The translations under genes were made by a program, and so were the position numbers. Positions 544 through 14,411 of a stretch of DNA of 15,951 nt are shown here, in pieces. The first letter of the stretch is position 1. The number at the start of each line of letters is the position of its first letter. The notes under the pieces were generated by a model that saw nothing but the letters and a program-made list of their open reading frames with translations, had not been told where the DNA came from and did not search any database. Source of the stretch: Candidatus Aenigmatarchaeota archaeon (GTDB lineage: Archaea; Aenigmatarchaeota; Aenigmatarchaeia; CG10238-14; SCSR01); contig JAWBTW010000004.1 in the NCBI GenBank assembly GCA_039000165.1, forward strand, positions 32,470-48,420, in the 5' to 3' direction.

Positions 544-746
544 AATTAAATAATGGTTAAAAGAATAAAAAGAATTAACTAGTTAAAATTTTTTAGTAGT
601 TTTAAAACAATAAAAAATTATGCATTCAAAAATTGAAACTTGTTATGAAAAAATTTGTAAAATAGCAAGAGTTGCCTCAAGCGTTAATAGAGAATATGTA
701 TAAAAACTTATGGGACAGGAGGGATTTGAACCCTCGACACACCGGT

Positions 747-758
747 AACCGCTTAGTT
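747..758 (-). other. 12-nt tRNA intron at canonical position 37/38
   Basis: AACTAAGCGGTT lies between G37 and A38. The central helix is imperfect (C32-G, U33-G, G34-C, A35/G mismatch), so the BHB/BHL is relaxed. A boundary shifted by 1 nt gives the same product. Confidence 0.8.
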
Positions 759-787
759 CTTCAGCCGGTTGCTCTCCCGGGCTGAGC

Positions 788-804
788 TTACAGCACATTA
801 GTGA
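788..804 (-). other. 17-nt BHB tRNA intron at non-canonical position 9/10
   Basis: Central helix ACAG(4-7):CTGT, bulges TA|T and AA|G, intron helix CAC:GTG with TAAT loop, exon helix GGG(1-3):CTC(11-13). Confidence 0.85.
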
Positions 805-1585
805 TACTGTCCCTACGACTGTCCCATTTCCTACATAATAAAATGGTTTCTAATTTATTTTGCTTGTTTAGATTTTGAAATCCTATCTCCTCTTTTAAAT
901 TAATTAATGAATTTAACCTTTTAATACGTAACCTTATTCCACAAGTTATTACCCCATCCTTTCGTACATTGAATGTGTTTGATATAAATATTGTTGATTT
1001 TATATTAAAGAATTTTTCAAGACCTTCTTTAATCTCATTTAAGAATTGGAAACCATTATCAAGTAAATTTTGGGATTTCCACATTTCCAAACCTATAAAT
1101 GGGTTGTGTTTGCTGATGTCGACCGTGCCTTCACAATTGAAAACCATCCTAACAAAACTTCTGAAACACTCTTTTTTATTTTTAATCCAAGTTGGTACAG
1201 AAAACTCTTGCATTACCTTACAACCTTTTGGAACCCCTACTAAATGAAGTACTCTACTCAACAATTTACAATTCACACCAAAATTGAAAGTTTTTCCAAA
1301 TTTGTTTCCCTTACAAGGCCTCACTCTTCCTTTGATACCAAACAAATTAAAAATTTCATTTCCAAATATTTCTAACTCTTGGAGATCTTTTGAAGTAAAA
1401 TCAAATCTCCATTTAGGTTCACCTTGGAGATGCCCATCACACATCAAGGCTGCAACTATAGATGCTAGTTGTGGAGAAGAACGAACAGGAAACCAATTGC
1501 TATGTAAATTAATTGAATTTATTGCATGATCTCTCGATTTGAATAACTTTATTACATCTTCTTCAGTTACTAAAATCTCACTCAT
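788..1585 (-). CDS. Free-standing double-motif LAGLIDADG endonuclease (intein/DOD-type); 3' end overlaps tRNA-Phe
   Basis: Motifs LASIVAALMCDGHL and FRSFVRMVFNCEGTV keep the acidic catalytic residues. C-terminal EEIGFQNLNKQNKL resembles intein block H. No splicing (Hint) termini. ATG at 1585, alternative GTG at 1594. The stop TAA is the last 3 nt of the 9/10 intron. Confidence 0.88.
   Translation of the reverse strand: MSEILVTEEDVIKLFKSRDHAINSINLHSNWFPVRSSPQLASIVAALMCDGHLQGEPKWRFDFTSKDLQELEIFGNEIFNLFGIKGRVRPCKGNKFGKTFNFGVNCKLLSRVLHLVGVPKGCKVMQEFSVPTWIKNKKECFRSFVRMVFNCEGTVDISKHNPFIGLEMWKSQNLLDNGFQFLNEIKEGLEKFFNIKSTIFISNTFNVRKDGVITCGIRLRIKRLNSLINLKEEIGFQNLNKQNKLETILLCRKWDSRRDSITNVL
807..825 (-). 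repeat. Tandem duplication of the tRNA-Phe acceptor 5' strand (12-nt period)
   Basis: GGGACAGT-CGTA-GGGACAGT on the minus strand, with 7-mer copies at 819-825 and 807-813. Confidence 0.9.
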
Positions 1586-1645
1586 TTTTAACACAAAATA
1601 AATAAGAGATAGCCATTTATTTATCTTTCGAAATTTTAGTTCCGG

Positions 1646-2635: not shown

Positions 2636-3166
2636 TTATTTTTCAACTAGTTTTTTTAATGTATCTTCAAAAATTTTGTAAGTTTCTGAATCATAAAGAA
2701 AGAAAGTAACTTTTTCCAATTTTGTTTTTCCTTTGAGGTAATTTATTACGCTAGAAAGCATTATTCTTGCACATCTTTCTTTTGGAAAGCCAAAAACACC
2801 TGTTGAAATAGCAGGAAAGGCTATATTTTTTAAGTTATACTCCTCGGCAAGTTTTAAACTATTCAAAGTTGCGTTTTTTAACTTTTCGTCTTCATTTCCC
2901 TCCCCGTAAACAGGACCAACAGCATGAATCACATATTTTACTTTTAGGTTTCCTCCTGAAGTTATTCTTGCTTCTCCAACAGGACAAAATCCTATTTTAT
3001 CGCATTCTTCTTGAATTTTTGGTCCGCCTTTTTTTCTTATTGCTCCTGCTACTCCTCCACCAAGTTTGAGTTTAGAGTTAGCAGCATTAACTATTGCATC
3101 GCCTTCAAAATCTGTTATGTCACCTTGAACAATTTCCAAAATGCTTTTGTTGATATTTACTTTCAT
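2636..3166 (-). CDS. Macrodomain protein (MacroD-type ADP-ribose / O-acetyl-ADP-ribose hydrolase)
   Basis: GDIT, DAIVNAAN, GGGVAGAI, VIHAVGP and AFPAISTGVFGFP motifs. Start taken at ATG 3166, because the track's GTG at 3196 overlaps the tRNA-Asn discriminator base. Confidence 0.95.
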   Translation of the reverse strand: MKVNINKSILEIVQGDITDFEGDAIVNAANSKLKLGGGVAGAIRKKGGPKIQEECDKIGFCPVGEARITSGGNLKVKYVIHAVGPVYGEGNEDEKLKNATLNSLKLAEEYNLKNIAFPAISTGVFGFPKERCARIMLSSVINYLKGKTKLEKVTFFLYDSETYKIFEDTLKKLVEK

Positions 3167-3195
3167 TTCTAACCCTATAATTCTCAAGACAAGCA

Positions 3196-3282
3196 CGCCC
3201 TCGCTGGGATTTGAACCCAGGACCTACCGGTTAACAGCCGGGTGCTCTACCACTGAGCTTTCCTCGTAATTACTACGAGGGC
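3196..3282 (-). tRNA. tRNA-Asn(GTT) with a 15-nt intron at 8/9 (3260-3274)
   Basis: Minus strand reads GCCCTCG T [AGTAATTACGAGGAA] A GCTC AGTGGTA GAGC A CCCGG CT GTT AA CCGGT AGGTC CTGGG TTCAAAT CCCAG CGAGGGC G. G73 fits Asn. One C27/U43 mismatch. Confidence 0.92.
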
Positions 3283-4033
3283 TGCGAGGGCTTAATATAT
3301 TTTTTAACAACTTGTTTTCATCAATTAAATATTCTTCTATACTTTTATAGAATTTCCTTAAATTATTAGGCGTTATAACAAAAACTTTATAACCTCTTTG
3401 TTGTAAATCCTTTATCTTCTTTTTTAATTTCATAGCTTTATCAAAACCTTTCCACATGCTACATTCTACAATAAGGTTACCAACCTTGAAATCTGGGAAA
3501 TAATATTTTTTATTGACATTTATACAAGGTTCGTATTGATAATTTATTCCAAATTGAAATAATGTATCAGCAATTTTCTTTTCTAAAGTATTTCTGACGA
3601 GTTCACCACGTTTGGTTTTAAATTTGTAGCTTCCAATCTTCTTAAACCGTTCATATTGCTCTAAGAAATATTTTTCACCTAATTCTTTTCTAAGTTTTTT
3701 ATGTAACCTGCTAGAAGCTTTTTTCATCTTAATTAGATTTTTTCTGAATGTTTTGCTTCTAACCTTCTTTAAGTAGCTGGCTTTACCACCAATCCTTTGT
3801 TTCCAGTTTTTATCTAACCGTTTTTGAATAATTTGCTCGATATCAACTTCTTCTAAACCTAAAAATTTCATGAGTTTGTTAAGAACATATCGAGAAATAG
3901 GTCTACCTTTATGTTTATAATAATATATTGCAGATTTCACTACATTTAAGGTTTTTGCCAACTTTCTTTCACTACCAGCCTTTTTTATGGCCATGTTAAT
4001 TATGTTTTTCTGATCTTTTAATTTAAAATACAT
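3224..4033 (-). CDS. HTH plus PD-(D/E)XK (Vsr/DUF559-like) putative endonuclease; 3' end overlaps tRNA-Asn
   Basis: N-terminal HTH-like SERKLAKTLNVVKSAIYYY, a Lys/Arg-rich linker, and C-terminal GELVRNTLEKKIADTL..GINYQYE..YFPDFKV..LIVE. The ORF reads through the tRNA 5' half and stops at tRNA nt 43-45. Confidence 0.75.
   Translation of the reverse strand: MYFKLKDQKNIINMAIKKAGSERKLAKTLNVVKSAIYYYKHKGRPISRYVLNKLMKFLGLEEVDIEQIIQKRLDKNWKQRIGGKASYLKKVRSKTFRKNLIKMKKASSRLHKKLRKELGEKYFLEQYERFKKIGSYKFKTKRGELVRNTLEKKIADTLFQFGINYQYEPCINVNKKYYFPDFKVGNLIVECSMWKGFDKAMKLKKKIKDLQQRGYKVFVITPNNLRKFYKSIEEYLIDENKLLKNILSPRSPRSNYEESSVVEHPAVNR
3260..3274 (-). other. 15-nt BHB tRNA intron at non-canonical position 8/9
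   Basis: Central helix CCTC(3-6):GAGG, bulges GT|A and AA|A, intron helix GT:AC with AATT loop, exon helix A(-1)G1C2:G10C11T12. Confidence 0.8.
3276..3291 (-). repeat. Tandem duplication of the tRNA-Asn acceptor 5' strand (9-nt period)
   Basis: GCCCTCG-CA-GCCCTCG-TA, with copies at 3285-3291 and 3276-3282. Translates as SPR-SPR in the nuclease ORF. Confidence 0.9.
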
Positions 4034-4066
4034 AATAAAAACTTTGTTTATTACTATTTAAAGTTA

Positions 4067-4088
4067 CTTCCAACTGAGCTACGAGGGC
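4067..4088 (-). pseudogene. Orphan intron-less 5' fragment of tRNA-Asn (about nt 1-22)
   Basis: GCCCTCGTAGCTCAGTTGGAAG. The first 16 nt are identical to the predicted spliced tRNA-Asn 5' end, followed by a D-loop-like TGGAAG, after which the similarity stops. Confidence 0.88.
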
Positions 4089-4139
4089 TTTTTAAACTAC
4101 TAATATATTATTAGAAAAAATTTTAAAAGTAAGTTTAAT

Positions 4140-6626
4140 CTAAGGTAAGAAGTCTTTTTTCTCTATTTTTTCTGGCAAATAGTTTTCTGTTATAAATTTC
4201 AGGCCTTTTCCTGATAAAGCTTCTAATTCAGCTTTTATCTTTCTTTCAATCATAAGTTTTAATTCCTTTTGCCAGGCTGGGTGTTTGAACCATTCATAAT
4301 TCAGCATTTCTTTTGCTCTTTTTATGTCAACCTCTTCTGCTTTTATAGTAAAATCTTTTAAGCCAAATTTATCTATATCACTTATCGTTAAACCTAAAAA
4401 TTTTGCGTTTGGTGTTCCTAATCTATCAGAAACATGAGCCAGACTCATCGAACCGTATTTTATAACTGAATAAATATACCATCCATAACTGTTATGGAAA
4501 ACTATACCATTTCCACCTATAAAAGAATTAGAAACTGGAACAGCAAGATCAAAAACATCACCTTCATATTCTACTTCCTCTATTTTCTTTATTTTAACTA
4601 GAGTTATCATGTTTTCAAAAGGTTTTAAATTTTCAAAATCTTCCTTAAACTTTTCAGGAATTCCGTACTCTCTTACAGAATCTATAAATCTATCTTGATT
4701 AATCAACCTAGCTTTAACTGAATAAGGTACACCAAAATTATTCATAAGATTTGTTAAAATTCCTTTTACGTTTCCTTCATTCGGTAAACCATAAATTGAA
4801 TCATTGGTATAACATAATTTTGAACTTGGAGAAATCCCAAGTTTTTCTTTTATTTCTTCGCTCATTCTTGTATAAGGTATTCTTACATAGTAACCTTTAG
4901 AGTAATAAATTGTTGGCATTACTCCGAAAGATAAAAGAAGAAGAGAAAGTTGTTTTGCTAGCATCTCACTTTTTGTGAAATAAACTATATTATTATACTT
5001 ATCTATATAGCCGTCTCCTTCTATTAGACCCTTAATAAATGCCATTTGAACCTCGAAAGGAGAATTAAAAATGAAAGGAAGAATTTGTTTTTCTGAGGCT
5101 CCTGATTTTAAGCCGAAATAAGAAAATATTTTAGAAAGAATGGAACTTCCTACCGAAACCCTTATCCCTGTTTTCTTCCTTCCTTCTAAAGACAAAGAAA
5201 AGTTAAGATTTAACTTTTCCTTTAAAATTCTTTCAATTTTTTTTATCTTTTCTTCTTCCTTAGAAGACAAACTAAAAATGACATACCTTGAATACAAAGA
5301 GCCTTCTGCAACCCACAACCCAAGTAACCAAGCCAAATCTTCGTCTATTTTTATTTTATTTACTATTTTTTGTTTTCCTTTCACATGTCTTACAAACTTA
5401 GCTTTTCTTACATTCTTTGCTTTGGAAAGGGTTTGTATTTTTCCGTCCTGATAGATCAGCTCTATTCTATTCCATTTATTTTTCGGCAAGATTTGCCTCA
5501 AAATCTCACTTACGTAAAAAACTTTTTCCTTTCCGTCAAACCTTGGAAAACTTTTAGAAACAACCAGATAATCTCCTTCTTTAAGTTCTGAAGCCCTAGC
5601 AACTACTATCTTACCATTCTTAAAACTAAAGAGAGAGTGGTGAGGCGTAACTTCTATGATTCCCCTTCCTCTTGTAAAAATTCTTAGTAATTTACCTTTA
5701 ATTTTATGACGATAAGCATATTCAACCTCTTTCCATTCAATTATACCATCACTTCTCATAGAAAGAGTTTCCCAAGGGACAAAAATTATCTCCTTACTTT
5801 TTTCTTTGTTTAAAAATTTTTCTAAAAGTTTACCTATTGGTGCAGCAAAAACTTCCTTAGTATTCTTATCTCTAACCACAACAACTTCAGAAGGAGGTAT
5901 AGAATCTGCATCAGTAAAAACATACACTGGAAGGTTAAACTCTGTAGCCAATCTTTGAATTAATCTTCTTGTCCCTCTTGCAGCCTGACCTTGAGTTGTG
6001 ACTAAAATACACTTGTGTTTTTTCCAAAACTTATCCTCATGCAACCTTTCAAAAGCTGCGTTCTTTTCTATAACAAGAATAAAATTGGCGTTAACTTTTT
6101 TAAATTCTAAATCTTCTACGTTGCTTGGGATAGCCCAACCCCCTGAACCAAGCTTTGACCAATCAATAGTATCTCCTCTATCTCTAATTATCACATCACC
6201 TACAACTCTTCCCCTTACGTCAGCGTTTAAATGTAGTTGCTCTCTTAAAACATCTAGCATAACTTCTAAATCAACAACTATAGGATCAGATTCATTTTGT
6301 TCGTTGAATGTGTTTTCCTGAGAGTTTGGTAAAGTTCTTTTCAAGGCATAAAACAAATCTCTTAGGCTTGTATGAAGGTTTTGGTCTAACAATTCCTTAC
6401 AAAAAGCAGCAACTAACATAGTTTGCATAAACTTCTTTGCATGTCCAGTGTGAAACAAAAATCTTTTTGCAGTTTTTTTTCCCAAGGTTAGCATTCCTGT
6501 TTTTTTATCGTAAATTATGTTAGAAAGCGAACGAATAGGAACTTCTATGTTTGGATTCTCTTTTTTCTCTATATCACTTAAAACCTTTTTTCCTAAATCT
6601 TCAAGTTTTTTCTTCGTTTCTTTCAT
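4140..6626 (-). CDS. top6A: DNA topoisomerase VI subunit A, intein-containing
   Basis: SLRDLFY (catalytic Tyr), VIEKNAAFERL, TDAD|SYGWYIY, KAELEAL. Exteins total about 357 aa. The ATG at 6626 is preceded by GAGGT (the track's start is TTG at 6632). Confidence 0.96.
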   Translation of the reverse strand: MKETKKKLEDLGKKVLSDIEKKENPNIEVPIRSLSNIIYDKKTGMLTLGKKTAKRFLFHTGHAKKFMQTMLVAAFCKELLDQNLHTSLRDLFYALKRTLPNSQENTFNEQNESDPIVVDLEVMLDVLREQLHLNADVRGRVVGDVIIRDRGDTIDWSKLGSGGWAIPSNVEDLEFKKVNANFILVIEKNAAFERLHEDKFWKKHKCILVTTQGQAARGTRRLIQRLATEFNLPVYVFTDADSIPPSEVVVVRDKNTKEVFAAPIGKLLEKFLNKEKSKEIIFVPWETLSMRSDGIIEWKEVEYAYRHKIKGKLLRIFTRGRGIIEVTPHHSLFSFKNGKIVVARASELKEGDYLVVSKSFPRFDGKEKVFYVSEILRQILPKNKWNRIELIYQDGKIQTLSKAKNVRKAKFVRHVKGKQKIVNKIKIDEDLAWLLGLWVAEGSLYSRYVIFSLSSKEEEKIKKIERILKEKLNLNFSLSLEGRKKTGIRVSVGSSILSKIFSYFGLKSGASEKQILPFIFNSPFEVQMAFIKGLIEGDGYIDKYNNIVYFTKSEMLAKQLSLLLLSFGVMPTIYYSKGYYVRIPYTRMSEEIKEKLGISPSSKLCYTNDSIYGLPNEGNVKGILTNLMNNFGVPYSVKARLINQDRFIDSVREYGIPEKFKEDFENLKPFENMITLVKIKKIEEVEYEGDVFDLAVPVSNSFIGGNGIVFHNSYGWYIYSVIKYGSMSLAHVSDRLGTPNAKFLGLTISDIDKFGLKDFTIKAEEVDIKRAKEMLNYEWFKHPAWQKELKLMIERKIKAELEALSGKGLKFITENYLPEKIEKKDFLP
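4491..5903 (-). mobile_element. Intein with LAGLIDADG homing endonuclease (471 aa) in top6A
   Basis: N-terminal SIPPSEVVVV, block B VTPHHSLF, endonuclease motifs LLGLWVAEGS and FIKGLIEGDG, block F VFDLAVP, C-terminal VFHN followed by Ser+1. Confidence 0.95.
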
Positions 6627-8268
6627 TTCCAACTACCTCTTTTAAAGTTGTCTGCTTTACCTTTTTAATTTTTTCCTCTTGCTTTTCTTTTTCAATTTCT
6701 TCTTCAGCTTTACTTTCCATTTCCTCTATCGTTAAATCAACTTTTTTCTTTATCATTTCTTCCAATTTCTTCAAAATAGTTTTGTAATCTTTATTTGTAA
6801 GTTTTGCCACTGCTCTCGCAACTTCTGGCACATACCTTTCGAATATTTGTCTTCTTAAAAGCCTTTCTCTTGCTTTTCTCTTTTGTCTTATATAGCTTGC
6901 AAGTTTTCTTCCTGCATCTTGTAAAGCAAGTTTTATTTCTTTAACAATTTCTGGATAGTTAGCTATTGCCTGCTTTCCTTCAGAAGTAAAAGGAACCCAA
7001 ACAGAAGCAAAATGAACAAGAATTGCTAAAGGTCCTACAGGTAAAGAGCCTGTTGATTGTTGTAAGCCATATCTTCTCCAATCAACTTCTGCTATTGCTT
7101 CTGTTATCGCACAATCTCCTTGATGGTAAAGTAAAGGAACCTTATTCGCAAACCTTAAAATTTTTGCAGTTTCATTTTCTTGTAACTTTCCTCCATAGGC
7201 TAAACCACATTCAACTAAAAATGGATAACCTCTATAAACTGTTGGTGGTCTAGAAACAGCAACATAATACTCAGCTTCTATTTCTTTTTTCAAACCTTCT
7301 TCTATCAACTTTTCTGTCAGCGGAGATAGGCAATTTGTTGGTGGAGACATAAGCTTAACCATTTGCATAGCTTTATGTAATCTTTCAGATTCTTCTGGAG
7401 TAAGGTCTTGTGGTTTTCTGTTGAACTCAATTTTTGCTAGCTTACAAATTTGCTCTGCAGAATTTTTCCCAACTCTACAAAATTCTGTTGTTAAGAAGTT
7501 AAGCATGTTCTTTGCTTTTGTACCCTTAAGCATTCTTCTCAAAATTCCAAGCTCAACACCATAAGGATGAGGTTTAATTTCCTTAGGTTGAACAGGTATT
7601 TCATTTGTTGCTCTTTTAAATTCTACTTTTCCGTTAGGACCATCAAAAATTATTGTAGCATAAGGATTGGCTATTGCTGTTTGTTTTATGTATTCTAAAA
7701 CAGAAGGTGGTTTTTCTGTATACCTTCCTTCTATTTCCATCTCTATTCTTACACCATGCCATTTTTGTGGATTTTTTTCTTTCTTGAAAGAAATTATGTG
7801 AGGCTCATTTTTTGCAACGTCTATCATAAGTTCAAAAATTGTAATATCTTTGCCTGTACTTGTAATAATTTTTGTTGGTTTGCCTGTAGTTAATTGAGAA
7901 TATAGAATTGCACCATGGATGCCTAAACCTTGAACTCCTCGACTTTGTCTAAGCCTATGGAATTTACTTCCATACAAAAACTTACCAAACGCATAAGGTA
8001 CTTTTGATTCAACTACCCCTGGACCATTATCTTCAACTATAACTTTAAACCTATCGATACCAACTTGCTTAACTGAAACATAAATTTCTGGTAAAATGTT
8101 TGCTTCATTGGTGGCATCTAACGCGTTATCTAAAGCTTCTTTCACTACTGTAATCAAACTTTTTGTTGGATTTTCATAACCTAGCAAATGCCTATTTTTC
8201 TCGAAAAATTCTGCTACACTAACTTCTCTCATTTCCTTTGCCATTTTTTCAGCAATACTCTCTTCCAT
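6601..8268 (-). CDS. top6B: DNA topoisomerase VI subunit B
   Basis: SVAEFFEKN, GHKL motifs KEALDNALDA, VEDNGPG and QSRGVQGLG, plus IKPHPYG, RFANKVPLLY and VPFTSEGK. Confidence 0.97.
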   Translation of the reverse strand: MEESIAEKMAKEMREVSVAEFFEKNRHLLGYENPTKSLITVVKEALDNALDATNEANILPEIYVSVKQVGIDRFKVIVEDNGPGVVESKVPYAFGKFLYGSKFHRLRQSRGVQGLGIHGAILYSQLTTGKPTKIITSTGKDITIFELMIDVAKNEPHIISFKKEKNPQKWHGVRIEMEIEGRYTEKPPSVLEYIKQTAIANPYATIIFDGPNGKVEFKRATNEIPVQPKEIKPHPYGVELGILRRMLKGTKAKNMLNFLTTEFCRVGKNSAEQICKLAKIEFNRKPQDLTPEESERLHKAMQMVKLMSPPTNCLSPLTEKLIEEGLKKEIEAEYYVAVSRPPTVYRGYPFLVECGLAYGGKLQENETAKILRFANKVPLLYHQGDCAITEAIAEVDWRRYGLQQSTGSLPVGPLAILVHFASVWVPFTSEGKQAIANYPEIVKEIKLALQDAGRKLASYIRQKRKARERLLRRQIFERYVPEVARAVAKLTNKDYKTILKKLEEMIKKKVDLTIEEMESKAEEEIEKEKQEEKIKKVKQTTLKEVVGNERNEEKT

Positions 8269-14209: not shown

Positions 14210-14294
14210 CTAATTTTAGATTTCATAGGTAAGCTTAAATAGATTTTAAGCTGAAAAATTTAAAAATTAAATATTCTCTATAATTAATCTAAGT

Positions 14295-14404
14295 GGGGTT
14301 GTCAGCTAGTCTGGTTTAGGCTGGCAGGCTCCAGTTCATCTGGAGCTATGAAAAAAGATGAATGAAGAAACCTGCTCACGTGGGTTCAAATCCCACCAAC
14401 CCCA
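14295..14404 (+). tRNA. tRNA-Trp(CCA) with a 35-nt intron at 37/38 (14335-14369)
   Basis: GGGGTTG TC AGCT AGTCTGGTTTA GGCT G GCAGG CT CCA G [35 nt] A CCTGC TCAC GTGGG TTCAAAT CCCAC CAACCCC A. Confidence 0.94.
14335..14369 (+). ncRNA. tRNA-Trp intron, candidate minimal box C/D guide for Cm34
   Basis: CTGGAGCT (14340-14347) is complementary to tRNA nt 30-37 (GGCTCCAG) and is followed by D-like ATGA. The N+5 rule lands on C34. A C-like ATGAAGA sits at 14362-14368. Confidence 0.6.
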
Positions 14405-14411
14405 TTTAAAC

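Follow-up and report, generated by a model that had tools for sequence, protein, structure and literature searches.

Background

How archaeal tRNA genes gain non-canonical introns and become fragmented is a long-standing question, and it is raised in compact form by a tRNA-Asn(GTT) gene of Candidatus Aenigmatarchaeota archaeon (assembly GCA_039000165.1), a DPANN archaeon. About 0.8 kb upstream of this gene, on the same strand, lies an isolated 22-nt piece that repeats its 5' end, and between the two stands a 269-aa open reading frame (ORF), ORF269, which encodes a predicted nuclease. What is this stranded fragment, and what parted it from the gene? We examined the locus in a stretch of 15,951 nt (contig JAWBTW010000004.1, positions 32,470 to 48,420; "the window" in the following), whose minus strand reads, from 5' to 3', top6B, top6A, a spacer, the fragment, a TATA-like box, ORF269, tRNA-Asn(GTT) and a macro-domain gene. 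In the explanation that we favour, the sole tRNA-Asn(GTT) gene found in the assembly has probably been entered by a homing-type cassette of ~0.85 kb, at its D-loop/D-stem (after nt 16-22).

A comparable arrangement is known from Caldiarchaeum subterraneum. There, a 5' fragment (nt 1-27) of tRNA-Thr(GGU) lies upstream of a 1,868-bp insert with a repeated 545-bp region (Sugahara et al. 2012, PLoS One 7:e32504, PMC3293823). An 813-bp ORF of this insert adjoins the tRNA on the same strand, and the reconstituted tRNA contains, in its duplicated part, an extra intron (24/25). The same article reports that a classifier called the ORF a putative DNA-binding/recombination protein, that integrase-type integration was proposed, and that filled and empty alleles coexist among close relatives (PMC3293823).

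The assembly containing the window, referred to as G000, comprises 783 kb in 25 contigs (91.6% complete, 33% G+C), and the DNA sequencing runs that contain this stretch are labelled as hot-spring metagenomes. Among the genomes used for comparison, G001, G003 and G005 belong to the genus of G000, G147 to another genus of the same family, and G024 to the genus of G147.

Results

A stranded 5' end and a complete tRNA gene

The first 16 nt of the fragment are identical to the 5' end of the downstream tRNA-Asn(GTT) gene with its insert removed; past nt 16 the fragment reads TGGAAG and the gene GGTAG. This 16/16 match had been pointed out in an earlier note, made from the letters of the window, and we confirm it on the minus strand, the plus strand showing the reverse complement. 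Within the window the 16-mer is found once when up to two mismatches are allowed (0.01 expected; a match in 1 of 200 shuffles). The whole assembly holds one exact match, which is the fragment, and one match with a single mismatch, which sits within a tRNA-Leu gene called by ARAGORN. The fragment starts 51 nt past the top6A stop and ends 33 nt before the ATG of ORF269; the AT-rich sequence behind which the earlier note had placed it, just after top6A, is this 51-nt spacer. A scan of the assembly likewise bore out that no uninterrupted tRNA-Asn sequence from nt 1 to about nt 25 is left in G000.

The downstream tRNA-Asn gene is covered by Rfam model RF00005 from 3259 to 3204 alone (model positions 9-63, 48.9 bits) and goes undetected by ARAGORN at default settings. 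Because default tRNA finders miss it, the genome would appear to be without tRNA-Asn. It contains the only GTT anticodon arm of the G000 assembly and the only T-arm followed by CGAGGGC; being the sole source of a GTT anticodon, it must work, insofar as the assembly, at 91.6% completeness, lets one tell. The single matching T-arm and acceptor strand also leave no other split tRNA from which the fragment could come, an origin that the earlier note had named as one that would overturn its reading. A split, trans-spliced tRNA was rejected in turn, the downstream gene being complete, the matching T-arm single and no flank complementarity conserved. With introns allowed, ARAGORN reports a 'tRNA-Leu' with an 800-nt intron that spans the fragment to the tRNA end; its anticodon is wrong, and we regard the call as an artefact.

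A 15-nt insert after nucleotide 9

The junction of the short insert in the working gene can be written as 8/9, 9/10 or 10/11 and cannot be fixed exactly, because all three yield the same product. In the bulge-helix-bulge (BHB) motif, exon and intron form a central helix of 4 bp, short bulges with the splice sites lie on either side of it, and cleavage within a bulge follows a set rule. In all ten tRNA genes with an insert after nt 9 (three Asn, three Lys and four Phe) a 4-mer complementary to nt 4-7 is positioned 2-4 nt 5' of GCTCAG, and five pair combinations occur (CTCG/CGAG, TTCG/CGAG, CCCA/TGGG, TCCA/TGGA and ACAG/CTGT). This covariation over three tRNA identities supports a central helix of the BHB type with splice sites in short bulges, and with it the interpretation of the 15-nt insert as a putative BHB-type mini-intron. 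The inner BHB helix is weak in tRNA-Asn and clear in tRNA-Phe (CAC/GUG in the tRNA-Phe of the window). An exact scan of the metagenomes for the mini-intron junction gave no match. Introns are present in many tRNA genes of G000, and its gene for the splicing endonuclease EndA lies just beyond the edge of the window (PF01974, 95 bits).

Genes of this kind display a further regularity. An exact copy of the acceptor 5' strand occurs in the leader of seven out of nine comparable tRNA genes with a mini-intron after nt 9 (window positions 3285-3291 and 819-825, and loci L042, L048, L049, L076 and L077). In the minimum-free-energy fold of pre-tRNA-Asn (-43.2 kcal/mol, z -3.9) the leader copy pairs with the 3' acceptor strand, and the true acceptor 5' strand sits in a hairpin of the intron. 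As this model suggests, the leader copy may serve as a stand-in acceptor strand while the BHB of the mini-intron forms or is spliced.

Two other tRNA genes of the window are also interrupted. In the tRNA-Phe(GAA) gene (813..711, minus strand) a BHB mini-intron of 17 nt follows nt 9 (804..788), the anticodon loop is interrupted by a second intron, and the leader bears an additional copy of GGGACAG (825..819). A 268-aa LAGLIDADG-like ORF (1594..788, minus strand) runs into this gene, with its stop where the mini-intron ends. The gene escapes ARAGORN, and Rfam shows just a weak 'tmRNA' match. In G003 and G004 the tRNA-Phe gene has the leader copy and the mini-intron without the ORF; in G001 the ORF is present (99% identical). 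The other gene lies on the plus strand at 14294-14405; ARAGORN calls it tRNA-Trp(CCA), with a 35-nt intron, if introns are allowed and misses it at default settings, and in Rfam it likewise has a weak 'tmRNA' match.

Empty sites and a second genomic context

Genome searches found no match to the nuclease ORF in G003 and G005. In both, the top6A stop is followed by a homologous spacer of ~50 nt and then by GCCCTCGTAGCTCAGTGGTAGAGCA..., the start of a tRNA-Asn gene with an uninterrupted 5' half, in which the sole introns are those of the anticodon arm. Since this intact gene stands directly after the homologous spacer, the fragment of G000 occupies the old position of the tRNA start. A further 14 relatives have tRNA-Asn genes with contiguous 5' halves. 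The earlier note had proposed a search of relatives for an order of top6A, intact tRNA-Asn and macro-domain gene; this order holds in G003 and G005 on the top6A side, and the gene downstream of the tRNA is not the macro gene. Relatives that lack the nuclease and nevertheless keep a separate fragment, which the note had considered fatal, are not seen here, the gene being intact in G003 and G005.

The same cassette stands in an entirely different place in G147. There, the end of the gene for asparagine-tRNA ligase (AsnRS; NF003037, 511 bits) precedes by one base a fragment with 22/22 identity to that of G000, behind which TATA-like box, ORF, leader copy, mini-intron and tRNA-Asn follow in turn. 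Similarity between G000 and G147 runs from about the first base of the fragment to about the last base of the tRNA, with the cassette aligned in two pieces of 87.5% and 89.6% identity. The flanks of G147 did not align with those of G000, and their G000 counterparts lie on another contig (69-75% identity). An empty counterpart is provided by G024, where an intact, intron-less tRNA-Asn gene follows a gene that shares C-terminal codons with the AsnRS flank of G147. A scan of the genome collection for the left junction retrieved two records, which are counterparts of G001 and G147.

The cassette is thus present and absent at one and the same site with clean boundaries, as expected of a homing cassette, and the two filled/empty pairs support the earlier proposal that it entered in the D-arm and brought its own intron-bearing 5' end. 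The view of the fragment as the ancestral tRNA start needs to be narrowed. It stands for nt 1-16, where the tRNA of G003 and G005 begins. The TGGAAG end, together with the TAA.TTTAAATA that follows, is the same in G147 in spite of the different genomic context; being common to both contexts and unlike the resident D-loop, it is cassette-borne. From the sequences it would appear that resident DNA is required for nt 1-16 of the fragment only and that the TGGAAG end moves with the cassette. A TATA-like box just 3' of the fragment is also found in G147, G023, G085 and G109, that is, in all five lineages inspected including G000. A capture of the tRNA promoter by the nuclease gene, as had been suggested, is not needed, as the cassette holds its own TATA-like TTTAAATA box.

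Recent exchange, older copies and population variants

G001 has the layout of G000, and the fragment, ORF and tRNA of the two differ by one mismatch in 893 nt. Their spacers are identical at 50 of 50 aligned bases, apart from one 1-nt indel. By contrast, nucleotide identity falls to 90.9% in the C-terminal coding part of top6A (32 mismatches in 353 nt) and to 86.5% in the macro gene. The top6A proteins are 98-99% identical, so the differences in the flanks are mostly silent. That the cassette is far more similar than adjacent silent sites points to a recent exchange, presumably by gene conversion, and not to constraint. Being more alike than its flanks in one comparison and set in unrelated contexts in the other, the cassette has spread laterally.

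Older copies have the same order of fragment, TATA-like box, ORF and tRNA-Asn in G023 (ORF 64% identical) and in G085 and G109 (profile E ~1e-95). Their fragments carry the acceptor 7-mer of their own tRNA, namely GCCTTCG (with one wobble), GCTTGGG and GCTCTGG in G023, G085 and G109, respectively, and all fragments stop at one tRNA position, after GG(A/T)(A/G)G. The working copies of G085 and G109 have their short intron in the D-loop, at the position of the fragment end, and not after nt 9. The D-arm has decayed in some fragments (GATA for GCTC in G085; G for A14 in G023), which argues that the fragments are no tRNA exons.

Metagenome contigs from four DNA runs, which were aligned at 88% likeness and may belong to related species, reveal a G147-like deletion, a G001-like insert past the tRNA and one contig without the ORF. 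The last, from run X8, has a top6A flank of ~90% identity and joins 4141 to 3301 via 25 other letters; it keeps 72 nt with the leader copy, the second copy (copy 2) and the mini-intron, and appears, from coordinates only, to be without ORF and fragment. Its 25 letters plus AATATATTAAG look by eye like native spacer. This allele, which would be a third type at the locus, could be a deletion between two AATATATTA(A)G repeats of a full cassette, or an older state. The junction of the G147-type deletion also occurs in a contig of run X8. The insert past the tRNA consists of ~550-575 extra bases between the 3' end of tRNA-Asn and the macro gene (3166..3196) and is present in G001 (L004) and in a contig of run X6.

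A predicted nuclease encoded by the cassette

The conserved part of ORF269 stops near 3300, and its last ~25 codons translate the 5' part of the tRNA. No Pfam or NCBIfam family matches the protein above cut-off, with weak matches to helix-turn-helix (HTH) domains as the only ones, and no paralogue was found in G000. A profile of 33 members matches T7 endonuclease I (2pfj, E 2.9e-5) across E151, P180-D181 and E190; these four residues are invariant in the 33 sequences and align with the motif region of T7 endonuclease I. Judged by this alignment, the family has the conserved acidic residues, E...PD...E, of a putative PD-(D/E)xK active site. In the AlphaFold model (predicted local distance difference test, pLDDT, 91) residues ~146-251 align in VIA-align with Bax1 (Z 9.2), I-Bth0305I (8.4), PspGI (8.2), TnsA (8.0) and Vsr (7.8), and residues 6-72 align with HTH repressors of the Cro/C1 type. 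The modelled protein therefore has a predicted restriction-endonuclease-like core fold. Compared with the ORF of G023 over 244 codons, the proportion of non-synonymous differences (pN) is 0.22 and that of synonymous ones (pS) 0.80, the latter being saturated, which indicates that the ORF is under strong constraint. From its fold and motif we consider ORF269 a predicted nuclease.

Distribution of the family

A search of 1.84 billion representatives assigns 214 representative clusters to the family at a threshold of E <= 0.001, and 32 when the threshold is E <= 1e-30. Wherever the sources name the proteins, it is as 'hypothetical protein' or 'Uncharacterised protein'; these sources are Micrarchaeota, Woesearchaeota, Pacearchaeota, Diapherotrites and records of uncultured archaea. 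Eighteen family loci were oriented and inspected. In ten of them the ORF lies directly upstream of a tRNA gene, mostly reading into it (Asn 6, Lys 3, Pro 1). One member (L046) lies inside a 16S rRNA gene, with exons recognised by Rfam on both sides. Its two junctions share a short complementary pair, in keeping with a BHB intron, and no duplication is found at this 16S locus. Three are inside 23S rRNA genes according to Rfam (L051, L052, L054), two are 23S-like by eye (L057, L058) and two are unclassified (L055, L062). In 83 of 100 full-length members the C-terminal tail resembles a translated tRNA 5' end (..GTAGCTCAG.., ..CCnnnGTAG) in any frame, a count inferred from the peptides and not from the underlying DNA.

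The distribution is patchy, with a match in 5 of 61 relatives and in 39 of 371 genomes of the class, and decayed copies exist. In G147 an in-frame deletion of 264 nt has removed the HTH end and the helical middle (window 3638..3914), and the copy in G119 contains stop codons. Sites in rRNA introns and next to tRNA genes, patchiness and decayed copies together fit a homing endonuclease gene. A more distant member in G075 (L045) has AsnRS-like C-terminal codons upstream and a tRNA-Asn with an unusual D-loop (AGTTTGGTGGAGC); it may represent a stage at which the element stands free, or else a target that resists it. We found no description in the literature of an HTH and PD-(D/E)xK nuclease beside tRNA-Asn in DPANN archaea, with most subscription journals outside the coverage.

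Layout of the locus

The features of the locus are compiled in Table 1. A second selfish element is situated just 50 nt from the tRNA cassette. The top6A gene of G000 contains an intein of ~469 aa with a LAGLIDADG domain (aa ~245-713; window 4490-5900, minus strand), which is absent from top6A of G001, G003 and G005, where aa 1-244 are joined straight to 714-830. The intein is thus a presence/absence polymorphism as well.

Table 1. Features of the tRNA-Asn locus, in window coordinates
Feature	Position	Strand	Basis
top6B	8268..6601	minus	
top6A (DNA topoisomerase VI subunit A), 830 aa including the intein	4140..6632	minus	Pfam TOP6A-Spo11_Toprim 2e-58, TP6A_N, Intein_splicing, LAGLIDADG_3
Native AT-rich spacer, 51 nt, presumed tRNA promoter region	4089..4139	minus	homology by eye to spacers of G003/G005
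Stranded 5' piece of tRNA-Asn, 22 nt, GCCCTCGTAGCTCAGTTGGAAG	4088..4067	minus	sequence match and position in G003/G005
TATA-like box TTTAAATA, ~22 nt 5' of the nuclease-gene ATG; putative promoter	4055..4062	minus	sequence
ORF269, 269 aa; ATG at 4033, stop TAG 3226..3224	3224..4033	minus	HTH, helical middle, predicted PD-(D/E)xK fold
Leader copy of the acceptor 5' strand, GCCCTCG, two bases upstream of the tRNA	3285..3291	minus	sequence
tRNA-Asn exon 1 (nt 1-9), GCCCTCGTA, cassette-borne	3282..3274	minus	
Mini-intron, 15 nt, GTAATTACGAGGAAA, after about nt 9	3273..3259	minus	CGAG pairs with tRNA nt 4-7
tRNA-Asn exon 2, nt 10 to discriminator, GCTCAGTGGTAGAGC...CGAGGGCG; CCA not encoded	3258..3196	minus	
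Macro-domain protein gene, ATG at 3166	2636..3166	minus	Pfam Macro 2.7e-44

Discussion

How the cassette could move

On the explanation that we favour, the cassette would bring a TATA-like box, the gene for the HTH and PD-(D/E)xK protein, the leader copy and a replacement tRNA 5' end with the mini-intron. The replacement would span nt 1 to about 16-22 and the resident gene would continue from about nt 17-23 onward, such that the working tRNA combines the 5' end of the cassette with the 3' two-thirds of the resident gene, the mini-intron being excised by the splicing endonuclease of the cell. The resident 5' end would remain behind as the 22-nt fragment. Of this account, the comparisons show the insertion, where it begins and ends, how it has spread and what its parts are; the movement itself is proposed. 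The nuclease would recognise the uninterrupted 5' third of a tRNA-Asn gene and cut it near the D-loop, and the break would be repaired from a cassette-bearing copy. Direct repeats derived from the tRNA would provide homology, namely the fragment as left arm and the resident tRNA part as right arm. Such arms would explain why the same cassette is found in tRNA-Asn genes with different neighbours, and carriers would be immune because of their two tRNA-like copies one lacks its remainder and the mini-intron interrupts the other.

A more far-reaching proposal, which we consider possible rather than probable, makes the fragment a working part of a self-contained homing unit. With the tRNA pieces as its only homology arms, the unit would hop between tRNA-Asn genes independently of neighbouring genes, plant a tRNA intron and shed a tRNA fragment at each hop, and so give rise directly to the tRNA genes, disrupted or split, for which these archaea are known. 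Lying next to the TATA-like box, the fragment may also be an operator for the HTH domain of the nuclease, in a form of autorepression. I-TevI reportedly represses its own expression.

Several observations weigh against a homing cassette of this kind or limit it. The member in G075 lies between AsnRS and an intron-less tRNA-Asn gene without any fragment, so that the fragment is not universal. The left homology arm would be a mere 16-22 nt long. Fragment and working copy share the acceptor 7-mer in G000, G085 and G109, and foreign donors need an added assumption, either donors with the same tRNA or later gene conversion. The X8 contig, which appears to have the mini-intron without ORF and fragment, fits either order of events, with the mini-intron first or the ORF lost later, and so does tRNA-Phe, whose leader copy and mini-intron occur in G003 and G004 without an ORF. 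As to the protein, the place where the (D/E)xK motif normally has its lysine is taken by another residue (consensus E-C-T; E190-C-S in ORF269), and the nearly invariant K206 could substitute for that lysine, to judge from the alignment. The Z values of 8-9 are modestly above the background of 7-8 stated for VIA-align, and Foldseek matched solved nucleases in PDB weakly (best E 2.4e-3). Finally, cleavage by the protein, its target site, the immunity of carriers and the splicing of the mini-intron are deduced from sequence.

Alternative explanations

An insert flanked by pieces of a tRNA gene could also be the relic of integrase-mediated integration, in which the attP site of a plasmid or virus mimicked the intron-bearing 5' part of a tRNA and the element later disappeared for the most part, with one ORF remaining between direct repeats. 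The Caldiarchaeum tRNA-Thr locus, for which this model was put forward, has the same architecture (PMC3293823), and direct repeats of 16-22 nt from the tRNA do flank the insert, with the right copy split by the mini-intron. However, the insert measures 0.85 kb and contains ORF269 alone, with its nuclease fold, and no tyrosine recombinase was found in the cassette or among the 17 window ORFs scanned against Pfam, in agreement with the earlier note, according to which no integrase is present. Furthermore, this one-gene cassette recurs in G000/G001, G147, G023, G085 and G109 with no further element genes in the inspected stretches, and the family also occurs in rRNA introns, a setting typical of homing endonuclease genes. 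As the sole gene of the insert has a nuclease fold and no recombinase was found in the window, we regard an integrase relic as unlikely. A quite different possibility is that the cassette has ceased to be selfish or never was so. ORF269 would then be a domesticated protein that binds DNA or RNA in the service of the tRNA locus, the duplication would stem from a local rearrangement, and vertical descent and loss would account for the pattern among genomes. The strong purifying selection on the ORF, its HTH domain and the absence of the canonical catalytic lysine would all suit such a factor. Nevertheless, domestication is the least probable of the alternatives considered here and, in our view, very improbable: the cassette stands in two unrelated contexts with unrelated flanks and is 99.9% identical where the flanks differ by 9-13%, copies have decayed by the 264-nt deletion in G147 and stop codons in G119, and just 5 of 61 relatives have a match.

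The fragment might instead be a functional 5' exon, either because the ORF lies in a BHB-type intron of ~0.8 kb or because the fragment serves as an alternative first exon, joined from about nt 9 to the 3' splice site that the mini-intron also uses. Family members do occur in introns of 16S and 23S rRNA genes, fragment nt 3-9 can pair with UACGAGG of the mini-intron, as the nearby copy can (in G000, G147 and G023), and the 7-mer of the fragment matches or wobble-pairs with the 3' strand of its own tRNA in all lineages inspected. Yet the downstream gene is complete alone, and duplexfold revealed no conserved helix at the 3' end of the fragment in five lineages, the pairing of the nearby copy being the only one seen; in G085, the pairing was equalled by 123 of 200 shuffles. 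The G085 fragment shows two changes in its D-stem strand (GATA for GCTC) and is without the CTC to which the D-loop intron of G085 would pair, A14 of the G023 gene is replaced by G in the fragment, and the empty-site alleles identify the fragment as the old gene start. Given the complete downstream gene, the lack of a junction helix, the decayed D-arms and the empty sites, we deem an exon improbable, slightly more so than an integrase relic, and the long ORF-bearing intron set aside in the earlier note stays implausible for want of a conserved helix at the fragment's 3' end. Rare use of the fragment as an exon could occur in G000, G147 and G023, to judge from its potential pairing with the 3' half of the mini-intron.

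Relation to known systems

A homing cassette with this layout shares with the Caldiarchaeum tRNA-Thr insert the upstream 5' fragment, a same-strand ORF beside the tRNA, an extra intron and filled and empty alleles. Unlike that insert, the present one is 0.85 kb long with one nuclease-fold gene, resides in a tRNA-Asn gene of a DPANN host, has its intron after about nt 9 and occurs as the same cassette in two genomic contexts; the ORFs of the two systems are compared here by description. The same source mentions elements of the SSV1/pNOB8 type, which likewise carry part of a tRNA and leave the displaced piece and the reconstituted gene as flanking direct repeats. Those elements, however, are many kb long with an integrase of their own (PMC3293823), whereas here a single nuclease gene is present and no integrase was found.

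By analogy, the closest functional parallel is collaborative homing, in which the gene of a free-standing homing endonuclease is adjacent to, and not within, an ORF-less short intron that breaks up the presumed target (cyanophage F-CphI and the psbA intron; T4 mobE and I-TevIII; PMC6083498, PMC2790892). Again, carriers would be immune, and gene and intron would move together. The introns of those systems belong to the self-splicing group I type and reside in protein genes of phages (PMC6083498, PMC2790892). Here, by contrast, a 15-nt BHB intron, presumably spliced by protein, occupies a tRNA gene of a cell, and the target is partly duplicated. The homing of F-CphI itself is said to have been described in a 2009 paper.

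Archaeal rRNA-intron homing endonucleases offer another parallel, since distant relatives of ORF269 occur in 16S and 23S rRNA genes, much as the intron-encoded endonucleases of Thermoproteales do in 16S genes (PMC4496867). Those enzymes belong to the LAGLIDADG type (PMC4496867), unlike the HTH and PD-(D/E)xK protein predicted here, the gene of which lies outside the spliced intron of tRNA-Asn. The fold is shared with I-Bth0305I (catalytic domain, PDB 3r3p; Z 8.4, root-mean-square deviation 3.1 over 89 residues). Another PD-(D/E)xK homing endonuclease, I-Ssp6803I, reportedly belongs to a cyanobacterial tRNA-fMet intron and so also targets a tRNA gene. ORF269 differs from the PD-(D/E)xK homing endonucleases in that no significant sequence similarity was found, its best sequence link being T7 endonuclease I, and in having an N-terminal HTH and a helical middle peculiar to its family.

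Implications

New in comparison with Sugahara et al. 2012 are the one-gene form, the unannotated HTH and PD-(D/E)xK family of DPANN archaea with its ties to tRNA 5' ends and rRNA introns, the two independent filled/empty pairs, the near-identity of cassettes amid diverged flanks and the covariation by which the mini-intron after nt 9 is defined. That population study tied the origin of non-canonical introns and fragmented tRNA genes to a mobile insert whose mover it could not name; the present locus adds a candidate enzyme and a cleaner case. If the protein indeed cuts an intact tRNA-Asn gene, it would represent a new family of archaeal homing endonucleases, and its movement would provide a concrete mechanism by which archaeal tRNA genes gain introns and become fragmented.

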